Positions 39,001-42,000 of a stretch of DNA of 48,264 bases are shown piece by piece. The stretch lies in the IMG/VR virus record IMGVR_UViG_2718217789_000011; one strand, written 5' to 3'. The stretch comes from a virus (lineage: Duplodnaviria; Heunggongvirae; Uroviricota; Caudoviricetes). The position numbers are program-made. Positions within the stretch are counted from its first letter, which is position 1. The number at the start of each line of letters is the position of its first letter.

Positions 39001-42000
39001 TGTGATTGCTCCGACCCTGCGGTCATCACCTGCTGCACAGCGCCCGAATCGGCTTCCGGTGTCGTGCCTGCTGGCTGACCAGGATTGACGGTCTGAACAT
39101 CCCCTGCCTGGTTCGTGGTGTTTTTTTTGCCATGAACCATAGTGTTTTTGTCCTGTTCCTGTTCTTTCTCCTGCTCCTGTTCCTGTTCTTGGCTTCGAAG
39201 CCCCTTAAAAGCCCCTTCGAAGCCCCTTACCGAATTTCGGCTATTATTCCGCCTCACATCCAGATGGAAATCCGTTTTATATCTGTCGTAAAACACTGAC
39301 AGAAAAGCGTTTTCAGGTAATGATGCATACTCATTCCTGACACCTGCACAACGGTTATCGCCAGGCTTCAACGTTTCCCCAACCTGCCAGGCTGCCATTT
39401 CATGGACCCAGACCATCTCTGCATCATGGTCATAGCTACAAAAACCAGCTTCAACAGCCCTTTTAAGCCCCTTTGAAGCCCCTTCCAGACCAAGCCCGGT
39501 TTCATGAGCAAGGTATAAAACTGGCAGGTAATACAAACCCAGCATATTTGCGTGAGGGGATGTCATCAGGTAAAAAGCAACAACTTGCGCTTCTGCACCC
39601 GCCTTTCTAAGTTCTCTCCCCGTTTCTCCCAGCCAGAATCGCGGAGAAACTTTTGCGTAATCACGCATGGCTACCTCATCTGGTGCCGAACCTTCCTCCG
39701 GATATAATCTGTGGTTCCCAATCGACAGAACCAGAGGAGGTTCGACATGTATTTTTTGAAAAGCCTTTATCAGGCTCATGTATTAAATGTTGCAGCAACA
39801 AACCGCTGGTGTAACAGCCCCGAAATGCTCCCGGATTACAGAGCCTGGCTGCGCGCCGAAACATACCTTCGTCTCGACATATTGATTAGCGAACTTCAAA
39901 AAGAGACTGCATCCATTCATAACCTTCAGGGTATCGACGCTGTTCGCATTCTGGTATCGCGCCATAGTGCTCTCTCAATAATTGAAGTGCGTCATCTCTC
40001 TTTTTCTGAACTGATTTTCTTGCTTCAACCAGCTCTGGAATCAGCGAATATCCCGCCGGAAGTGATCCAATACCCACCTCATGTTGACGAGCAGTTACAA
40101 GATGTGCCATACAACCAGCGTGCTGGATTGACTCCCTGCTCAGAGGCTGAATGGGATCACTCTCTGCTGAAGAAATACCAAGATTTGTATAATCCTCAAT
40201 AAGCCCGGCACACGCTTCTGCATCAGCCAGCTTTATTCTGGTTTCCTTGCGCTGTTCTCTGGCTGACAAACGCCAGAGCAGCGCATTAGCTTTATGTATC
40301 AACCACTCTGCCAGCTCCACATCAGATAAACCGCCACGCCAGATGTGCGGACTGTTTTCGTAAACGCTCAGTGTCAATTTTTTGTCATTACTCATATTTA
40401 TTACCCAATTAATGCACAGCCAGAGTGTTTCCTGCCGGGCCACCACGATTCATCTGATCGAACAGAACGATCGCTGATGCAACGAAATCATCAATATCTT
40501 TCACCAGCCGTTCCTTCGTCTCTACCAACTCCCGAAAATAAGCGGAACTGTGGCTGCGCATTCGGGCCACCAGCGGAGGCGGCATCGCTTTTTCGATCGC
40601 TGGTAACAACGCCTGAATTTTTTTAACCGCATCAGGAGTGTCTTTCTCCACCCAGCGGAAAATTTTCTGAGTATTGCGAGCCATGGCTTCCGGATGGCTG
40701 TCGTCATACAGTTCCGGGAACGTCATTCCCAGCTCGAAATACGCTTTGGTAATTTTCGCAGCCGGTACTTTTTCGCCGTCCGGATGCGCCCAGGCATTCA
40801 TCGCCATGCGGATGTGTTCATGCTTGATTTTCATGAATCAACTCCGGCGCATTTGATGTGTTAACCTTACATCCAACAGGTAAACCGTCGGTTGGGTTAG
40901 GATAAATATCTGGGCGGATTTCATGCGGGGTAACTTCCCACTTCATTAGTTGGCATAACGGAATTACCTGCTTTGGGGGAACGCCAAAGCTAAACCATTG
41001 CCAAACAGTCTGTTGAGCGACCCCCATATAACGACCTATTTCAGCCTGAGTGTATTTCTGCCTAATTTTTTCGCGAGTGCTATCTAGCATTTTGCCCTCC
41101 TCTAAAAACTATAAGCAAAGCCTACAATAAAAAACTGTATGCAATCAACAGTTTTTTATTGTGATGCTTTTAACAGTATTTACCTGTAAAATTGAATAAT
41201 GATGAGCGCCCTAGAAGTATCTATGTACAGAATCAGCAAGCTTCTTCAGGAAACTGGATGGAGCCAGGCTGAGCTTGCCCGTAGAATTGGTGTGACACAA
41301 CAAACTGTTCAACAATGGGTCAGCGGTAAGGCTACACCTAAAGCCTCAAGTTTGGATAAACTGGTTGAGGTTTCAGGGCATCCATTGCATTGGTTTTTAT
41401 TGCCTCCTGAAGAGTGTGAGCAAATTTTCACCCCTGACACGATGAAAATTGGTCCTCGCCAACGCGAACTGCTCCAAGCTTTTAGTGCGTTTCCTGAGGA
41501 AGACCAAGAAAAAATGCTTCAAGAAATCAAAGACAAGAAAAAATCAATGGAAGAAACCATTGCTAGGTGGCTGGCGGCACAAAAAAGCCGCCGGGCGTGA
41601 CCACAGTACAAGAAGAGGAGTTATGCCATGGGTACAGCCCTTTCTCCGATAGTTTCAGAATTCGAAACTACCGAACAAGAAAACAGTTACAACGAATGGT
41701 TGCGCACTAAAGTAACGTCAAGCCTTGCAGACACTCGCCCCGCAATTCCACATGACGAGGTAATGGCTGAAATGGAAAATCTTATTGCTCAAATTGCTGT
41801 AACTAACAAGAGCGAGTAATGTTACCCATTTTATGGCTACCGTCTGCTCGCGATGATTTGCGCCAGATCATAACTTACATCGCCAAGGAGAACCCACCGG
41901 CAGCACGTAGACTAAAAATACGCATTGAAACATCGGTATTACCTCTATCTGAGCATCCGTACTTATATCCACCAAGCGAACGGGTTTCTGGATTGAGAGA

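Follow-up and report, generated by a model that had tools for sequence, protein, structure and literature searches.

In phage lambda, the replication origin, which consists of initiator-binding repeats and an AT-rich element, lies inside the initiator gene (PMC7466680). In phage SPP1, the G38P-bound repeats and the unwinding element lie within gene 38, and a 356-bp piece of the gene is both required and enough for replication in vitro (PMC5737612, PMC6316719). Here, we describe a putative in-gene origin in a 48,264-nucleotide stretch of a Caudoviricetes virus (IMG/VR record IMGVR_UViG_2718217789_000011; the whole stretch is called the window), which is a lambdoid prophage of Escherichia coli O157:H7. 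Two clusters of a 9-bp word, AAGCCCCTT, lie in its replication initiator gene (38577-39668, minus strand). From sequence comparison, we consider it likely, with a probability of roughly 0.75, that these clusters are iterons bound by the predicted winged-helix N-terminal domain of the gene's own product and that, together with a less stable stretch of DNA, they form the origin of the prophage.

The locus resembles ori-lambda, and the origins of the Shiga toxin (Stx) phages 933W and P27, in that the presumed initiator-binding repeats sit in the initiator gene at the junction between the DNA-binding and partner-recruiting parts, the N-terminal module travels together with the sites, and the C-terminal module matches the partner (PMC7466680). 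The gene order of repressor, cro-like, cII-like, initiator, and loader genes is also that of lambda, and an origin within a lambdoid initiator gene is as such expected. The iterons of lambda are about 19 bp long and dyad symmetric. They form one block of 4 to 6, whereas the window has 9-bp units with an 11-bp period in clusters of 3 and 2 (plus a degenerate one) about 250 bp apart, and one of its clusters encodes a helix of a folded domain. Unlike in lambda, the initiator is not an O homologue, and a DnaC/IstB-type AAA+ protein takes the place of lambda P as the partner. A first-pass annotation, made by a model from the sequence alone, had pointed out that both the iteron and the split arrangement differ from those of lambda, and the 9-bp word, the two clusters, and the absence of a Pfam match to O bear this out.

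Similarly, the locus shares with SPP1 oriL and G38P a non-AAA+ organizer and repeats in the organizer's own gene; an AT-richer stretch beside the repeats is a candidate unwinding element, and the protein would, like G38P, hand over to a separate loader and helicase. Unlike SPP1, the locus has no Pfam replisome-organizer match, a different word, and a DnaC/IstB-type loader instead of G39P. A winged-helix initiator, here predicted, is also found in iteron plasmids (pPS10, F, R6K, and pSK41 RepA). Plasmid iterons are about 17 to 22 bp long, are spaced by about 22 bp, and are located outside the rep gene, where DnaA boxes usually accompany them; in contrast, the 9-bp units described here recur every 11 bp inside the gene, with no DnaA box nearby. 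Short repeats in two sets are known from P4 ori/crr and from the origins of staphylococcal pathogenicity islands, which have 6- to 8-bp repeats, the two island sets flanking a melted AT-rich region. However, the initiators of those elements are helicases or primase-helicases, and their sites lie outside or downstream of the gene. On our best reading of these comparisons, the origin would work like the in-gene origins of lambda and SPP1 while belonging to neither family, as the protein family, the word, and the split layout all differ.

Two clusters of a 9-bp word conserved as DNA

AAGCCCCTT occurs exactly five times in the window, always on the plus strand (39198, 39209, 39220, 39465, and 39476); all five copies fall inside 290 bp, and neither strand has any elsewhere. 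Dinucleotide-preserving shuffles of the window contained 0.49 copies on average and at most 3, with 0 of 100 reaching five. When one mismatch was allowed, the rest of the window yielded isolated single matches at chance level. Tandem Repeats Finder reported 11-bp arrays at 39198-39229 (2.9 copies) and 39458-39484 (2.5 copies), as well as a 6-bp array at 39151-39188. The linker-proximal cluster B (39198-39228, plus strand) consists of three exact units with an 11-bp period, and the promoter-proximal cluster A (39454-39484, plus strand) has two with the same period. Both groups had been recognized in the first pass, the second as a pair at 39465-39484, some 260 bp from the first. The clusters align in register at an offset of 256 bp, which adds a degenerate third unit (ACAGCCCTT) at 39454 to cluster A. 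No further AAGCCCCTT cluster that could mark a second, distant origin was found within the window.

Cluster A corresponds to codons 62 to 68 (EGASKGL), within the folded N-terminal domain, and cluster B to codons 148 to 157 (RGFEGAFKGL), adjoining a Glu-Gln (EQ) linker. The proposal that the EQ linker is the protein region that matches the repeats is therefore only partly right: cluster B borders the linker, but the iterons are not in it. With a period of 11 bp, successive units fall in different reading frames, and cluster B uses all three frames, one per unit. The broader suggestion that this is a likely origin embedded in an initiator gene holds up as far as comparison can take it: a gene in the initiator position is followed by a DnaC-like gene, the words are conserved as DNA, spaced by one helical turn, from Enterobacteria to Acinetobacter and Burkholderiales, and the whole family has the layout of two separate clusters.

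A genome scan with one genome per species returned 79 further loci, in Enterobacterales, Acinetobacter, Burkholderiales, Xanthomonadales, and other groups; locus statistics were computed over 77 distinct genomic loci, with the word counted at one mismatch or fewer. In each of the six phage relatives, two clusters separated by about 256 bp carry the 9-mer with an 11-bp spacing. Across the 77 loci, the density of the word is 11.3 per kb at gene positions 160 to 520 versus 0.35 per kb elsewhere, and 141 of 161 neighboring units are 11 bp apart. In a comparison of 84 relatives, the codons of cluster A are nearly fixed: E62 is GAA in 71/71, G63 is GGG in 74/76, A64 is GCT in 62/77, K66 is AAG in 73/73, G67 is GGG in 65/77, and L68 is CTT in 72/82. 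Unlike these word codons, the spacer codon S65 varies freely at its third position, and at other conserved glycine columns the commonest codon accounts for just 33 to 61%.

Taking cluster A as the reference, the orientation of cluster B differs among the 77 loci: 49 have it inverted, 11 are mixed, and 7 share the direct arrangement of the window. Inversion turns the peptide EGAxKGL into EAPxKPL. It may be tolerated because AAGCCCCTT and its own complement differ in the central three bases only (AAG-GGG-CTT versus AAG-CCC-CTT). Acinetobacter relatives have a third iteron cluster, which lies in noncoding DNA 16 to 38 bp upstream of the initiator start codon (L003, 2037-2056; also L013, L016, L024, L028, L030, L049, L156, and L185) and may serve autoregulation or extend the origin. 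Thus, given the fixed codon choice, the use of three frames, the inversion of cluster B, and the noncoding copies, we conclude that the word is under selection at the level of DNA, not of protein.

Protein modules, linker, and flanking DNA

The initiator gene is an open reading frame (ORF) encoding 363 amino acids, listed in RefSeq as the coding sequence of a "hypothetical protein" (WP_001205823.1). Its likely ATG, at 39668 with GAGG 5 nucleotides upstream, agrees with the RefSeq start. Among PHROG families, the protein matches 1701, "DnaD-like helicase loader" (E = 1e-148), and, weakly, 6251, "replisome organizer DnaA-like" (E = 1.8e-4); family 3729, "replication initiation protein," is matched by the C-terminal half. 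No Pfam family, Phage_rep_O and the replisome-organizer families included, matched at an E value of ≤0.01. In a phmmer search of 1.84 billion cluster representatives, 4,078 clusters (50% identity) were found at E ≤1e-3 and 899 at E ≤1e-30; the source names of family members are "DNA-binding protein," "hypothetical protein," and "replication protein." Seven base pairs downstream of the initiator gene lies the gene for a DnaC-like AAA+ helicase loader (37824-38570, minus strand), whose product matches Pfam IstB_IS21 (E = 4e-19), PHROG 50 ("DnaC-like helicase loader"), and NCBIfam PRK12377 (509 bits; cutoff, 389); its score against the DnaC equivalog, 299 bits, is under the cutoff of 357.

The N-terminal domain (residues 1 to 150; 39219-39668, minus strand) is predicted to be a winged-helix helix-turn-helix domain. 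An AlphaFold2 model of residues 1 to 160, with a predicted local distance difference test score of 80, shows a winged helix with helices at residues 25 to 36, 50 to 57, and 60 to 73, a strand at 45 to 47 between the first two, and strands at 77 to 80 and 85 to 88, followed by further helices. The codons of cluster A map onto the third helix, 60 to 73, which takes the position of the recognition helix in the winged-helix fold and, on this model, would be the helix that reads DNA. Foldseek returned nothing significant for the model among solved structures. Its neighbors among predicted viral structures (E values from 1e-3 to 1e-1) are an uncharacterized protein of the family and others that bear the names replisome organizer or replication initiator. 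The N-terminal domain has no ATPase motif and belongs to no ATPase family.

The two halves of the protein have different relatives. The C-terminal module (38579-39148, minus strand), presumably a domain for recruiting the partner, is 91 to 92% identical in DNA sequence to those of Tritos, Evi, 689R5, and other phages. In all these phages, the similarity ends at the end of the EQ linker (∼39148), and the N-terminal halves are unrelated. Conversely, the N-terminal half has relatives at 64 to 77% DNA identity in the Shigella Stx phages 75/02 and POCJ13 and in Klebsiella, Acinetobacter, Escherichia (Fraca and CharmingMan), and Ralstonia phages, and these carry other C-terminal halves and other partner genes, either DnaC-like or primase-helicase. 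The protein thus consists of an N-terminal module, a low-complexity linker, and an exchangeable C-terminal module, as in lambdoid initiators. It is the N-terminal, DNA-binding module, not the C-terminal one, that the iterons accompany. The last ∼24 residues of the initiator (38577-38648) weakly resemble the C terminus of DnaT (NCBIfam E = 0.002, below threshold; PDB 6aep and 2ru8, E of about 0.02), which probably explains why relatives are labeled "primosomal protein I" in phage records.

The CT-rich repeats mentioned in the first pass are a hexamer tract, (GARCAR)n, at 39147-39194 that encodes SQEQEQEQEKEQEQDK on the minus strand, in the pattern S-Q-(EQ)n-DK. It forms both the domain linker and the mosaic joint. 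The pattern AGC-CAR-(GAR-CAR)n, that is, S-Q-(EQ)n, directly follows cluster B in nearly all relatives. The linker serine codon is AGC at 76/76 loci, whereas AGC makes up about 22% of serine codons across the N-terminal domains, which suggests that the tract starts with a partial, terminal iteron-like unit, AAGCC. In contrast, codon choice for Glu and Gln in the linker equals that in the rest of the gene (GAA, 0.49 versus 0.52; CAA, 0.42 versus 0.38), so that the constraint on the (EQ)n tract looks protein level or compositional. The tract may also act at the DNA level, to which only the AGC codon and a few frame-shifted relatives point; these few relatives read the hexamers in another frame, giving (GA)n or RAGAGA.

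Frame and length of the tract vary elsewhere as well. The metagenome contig L069 has tandem, nearly identical initiator genes (1404-2318 and 2501-3421). Whereas the first of these linkers is the EQ type in one copy, the hexamers of its neighbor are translated in a different frame (RAGAGARKRARAG) before the shared frame resumes, which reflects either tolerated frame-shifting in the linker or an assembly or sequencing error. Within E. coli, the 601 bases around the clusters are present in 469 of 5,426 complete genomes, nearly always in single copy, and the matching stretch spans 595, 601, or 607 bases (H53 to H55). These steps are multiples of 6 bp and likely come from gain or loss of hexamer units in the EQ linker.

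Two further elements flank the clusters. Between them lies an AT-richer segment (39260-39320; GC, 38 to 42%), a candidate DNA-unwinding element. The least stable 40-bp stretch of the gene, 39267-39307, falls within it, near cluster B, and is 2 standard deviations below the regional mean; a GC dip of 6 to 9 points at the matching gene position is common to 64 relatives. Beyond the linker, an inverted repeat of 12 pairs (39109-39139, plus strand) surrounds a T8 run (39121-39128), which the first pass had also noted. The inverted repeat came from a scan for terminator-like structures whose total is at chance level, it sits in the C-terminal module, and it is not conserved with the N-terminal module. 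Its position recalls the palindrome beside the AT-rich tract of ori-lambda, and its assignment to the origin is uncertain.

The origin reading and its alternatives

We favor an in-gene initiator origin because of the DNA-level selection on the word, its fixed position and 11-bp phasing, its linkage to the N-terminal module, the predicted winged helix, and the context of initiator plus loader. That the initiator binds and bridges the clusters, where the DNA melts, and that replication starts here at all are what we infer from these. In the mechanism that we propose, derepression would lead to transcription of the gene from the early promoter, and the initiator would be made. Each cluster would take up two or three protomers, all on the same side of the helix, since the units are 11 bp apart. 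Protein-protein contacts would then bridge the two arrays, about 250 bp apart, with the DNA between them looped or wrapped. On supercoiled DNA, the least stable stretch (∼39260-39320), and possibly the hexamer tract too, would open, and the exchangeable C-terminal domain would bring in the DnaC-like loader with host DnaB.

Several observations weigh against this scheme. The distance between the clusters ranges from 232 to 280 bp in the relatives, in steps that do not keep helical phase, which does not favor a rigid bridged complex. Covariation of variant words between the clusters looked suggestive at L042, L050, and L076 but was rejected by permutation over 76 loci (5 versus 4.2 expected; P = 0.41), and this null result gives no covariation support for one reader of both clusters. 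The AT patch is modest, and amino acid composition alone could produce it. DnaA-box-like sites are absent between 35773 and 41351, and there are no auxiliary origin signals nearby. Literature searches turned up no paper linking AAGCCCCTT with iterons or phage, no binding or replication experiment on a family member, and no description of an origin or binding site for this initiator family. Finally, a search of viral contigs for exact pairs of units with 11-bp spacing matched at least 120 contigs, and in 40 of the 120 among the matches listed, the word lies in genes without detectable similarity to the N-terminal domain beyond the iteron-encoded peptide; a reader other than this domain is therefore conceivable.

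At least 80 of the viral contigs have a homologue of the N-terminal domain with words at the canonical positions. The 40 listed contigs that do not are mostly AT rich (of eight examined in detail, GC is 30 to 43% in seven and 56% in L201), and in most of them, the word lies inside an ORF of about 170 to 290 amino acids, in many followed by a low-complexity stretch. Pfam gives nothing meaningful for the loci examined in detail, and their best PHROG result is a weak hit to family 270, "replication initiation protein." Loci with AAGGGGCTT at 11-bp spacing include L184 (2360-3118), L094 (2-718), L170 (2504-3235), L201 (3313-3960), and L165 (1391-2230). L165 has one cluster only; the other four have two clusters of 2 to 4 units, 160 to 330 bp apart, with a linker of (DK)n, (GIGN)n, or GKGKG right after the second. 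L184 has six perfect AAGGGGCTT copies, and its next gene encodes a DnaB-family helicase. A profile of the initiator family found nothing in the Tritos N-terminal domain or the L094 protein, and in L184 just the iteron-encoded peptide aligned. In an AlphaFold2 model of one dissimilar protein, the order of elements is the same; the first cluster maps to the third helix, and the second lies just before a disordered linker. Tritos (L086), whose C-terminal module is 92% identical to that of the window and whose N-terminal domain is unrelated, has CGTGAC repeats in two clusters 260 bp apart (2100-2135, 2143-2181, and the 2403-2441 region) and an additional 12-bp repeat, present three times, that encodes a DKDT linker. 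The split two-cluster layout thus seems general for this class of organizers, and AAGGGGCTT is kept well past detectable sequence similarity.

The word might instead be read by another factor, from the host or a different phage protein, for example as a loading, pausing, or segregation site. Its presence in the 40 listed contigs with dissimilar genes would fit such a reader, as would the lack of covariation between clusters, yet we find this quite improbable. The dissimilar genes are themselves initiator-like, with weak PHROG 270 matches and, in L184, a DnaB helicase gene next door, and the modeled representative has the same element order and the word on the same helix, so that remote homology with a retained reader is the simpler explanation; moreover, DnaA boxes are absent, and we know of no host factor that recognizes this word. 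Another possibility is that the words are not an origin but operators through which expression of the gene itself or of downstream genes is controlled, for instance, by a transcriptional roadblock. Initiators of iteron replicons commonly autoregulate, and the extra Acinetobacter cluster at the 5′ end of the gene is where a repressor site would sit. However, the window and most relatives have no copies near a promoter, and both clusters are deep inside the coding region. The layout of boundary repeats, a less stable stretch, and an adjoining loader gene also fits proven in-gene origins (PMC7466680, PMC5737612). Operators in place of an origin are thus unlikely to us, although the two roles are compatible and may coexist.

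Since the clusters are in frame at a 267-bp offset, with both encoding EGA(F/S)KGL, and E62, G63, K66, and G67 are invariant, the repeats could in principle be a by-product of a protein motif needed for folding or function, with no role as DNA. This is hardly credible in view of synonymous sites fixed on codons not expected of GC-rich hosts beside a freely varying spacer codon, units in three frames, a cluster B inverted to EAPxKPL in most relatives, and noncoding copies. We also regard it as very improbable that the repeats, chiefly the hexamer tract, are short homologies that promote recombination and exchange of initiator modules. The hexamer tract does end where the mosaic joint with phages that have other N-terminal domains falls; its length changes by multiples of 6 bp among the E. 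coli copies, and its frame differs in some relatives. But such a role may fit the linker and not the 9-mer, which is kept as an exact word with 11-bp phasing and fixed synonymous sites at about 50 to 60% protein identity, and Tritos, which shares the C-terminal module and has an unrelated linker repeat, indicates that the hexamer tract is not a universal joint. An initiator-bound origin within the gene remains the reading we prefer.

Prophage setting and significance

Upstream of the initiator gene are a YdaT/cII-like gene, a YdaS/cro-like gene, and a divergent repressor gene. No known RNA family was found in 38400-40000 at E ≤1, and promoter and terminator scans gave counts at chance level. 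A search of plasmids for the initiator returned a handful of matches only, mostly prophages within large replicons. Two ORFs overlap on opposite strands, each with a family match: 39747-40202 on the plus strand (RefSeq "ECs1072 family phage-associated protein") and 39886-40446 on the minus strand (PHROG 8304; E = 6e-120). Probably one of these families derives from a shadow reading frame. In the RefSeq annotation of the identical region, the prophage repressor gene is immediately followed downstream by a toxin-antitoxin pair of the RelB/RelE(ParE) type (41628-42106).

The initiator family is large, with its 4,078 clusters, and has no Pfam model, and the word offers a searchable origin marker for many prophages of pathogens, including those of E. 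coli O157:H7, Shigella Stx phages, Klebsiella, and Acinetobacter. Expression of stx is impaired when phage DNA replication is blocked (PMC7466680), and the origin may therefore be relevant for the Stx phages of the family. The locus is also an unusually clean case of a coding sequence shaped by a second, DNA-level code. More tentatively, and with considerable doubt, we suggest that the site and its reader are the same DNA: cluster A encodes the third helix (EGAxKGL), and the word could be an ancient origin signal of tailed phages across phyla. A change in the site would then also alter the reader, and the second cluster would have to follow, which amounts to a lock. If true, the lock would explain why one 9-bp word is nearly unchanged across more than 4,000 sequence clusters and why the word and the two-cluster-plus-linker layout occur in initiators of AT-rich phages without other similarity. 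From these findings comes the testable idea that evolution may freeze a site that encodes its own reader.

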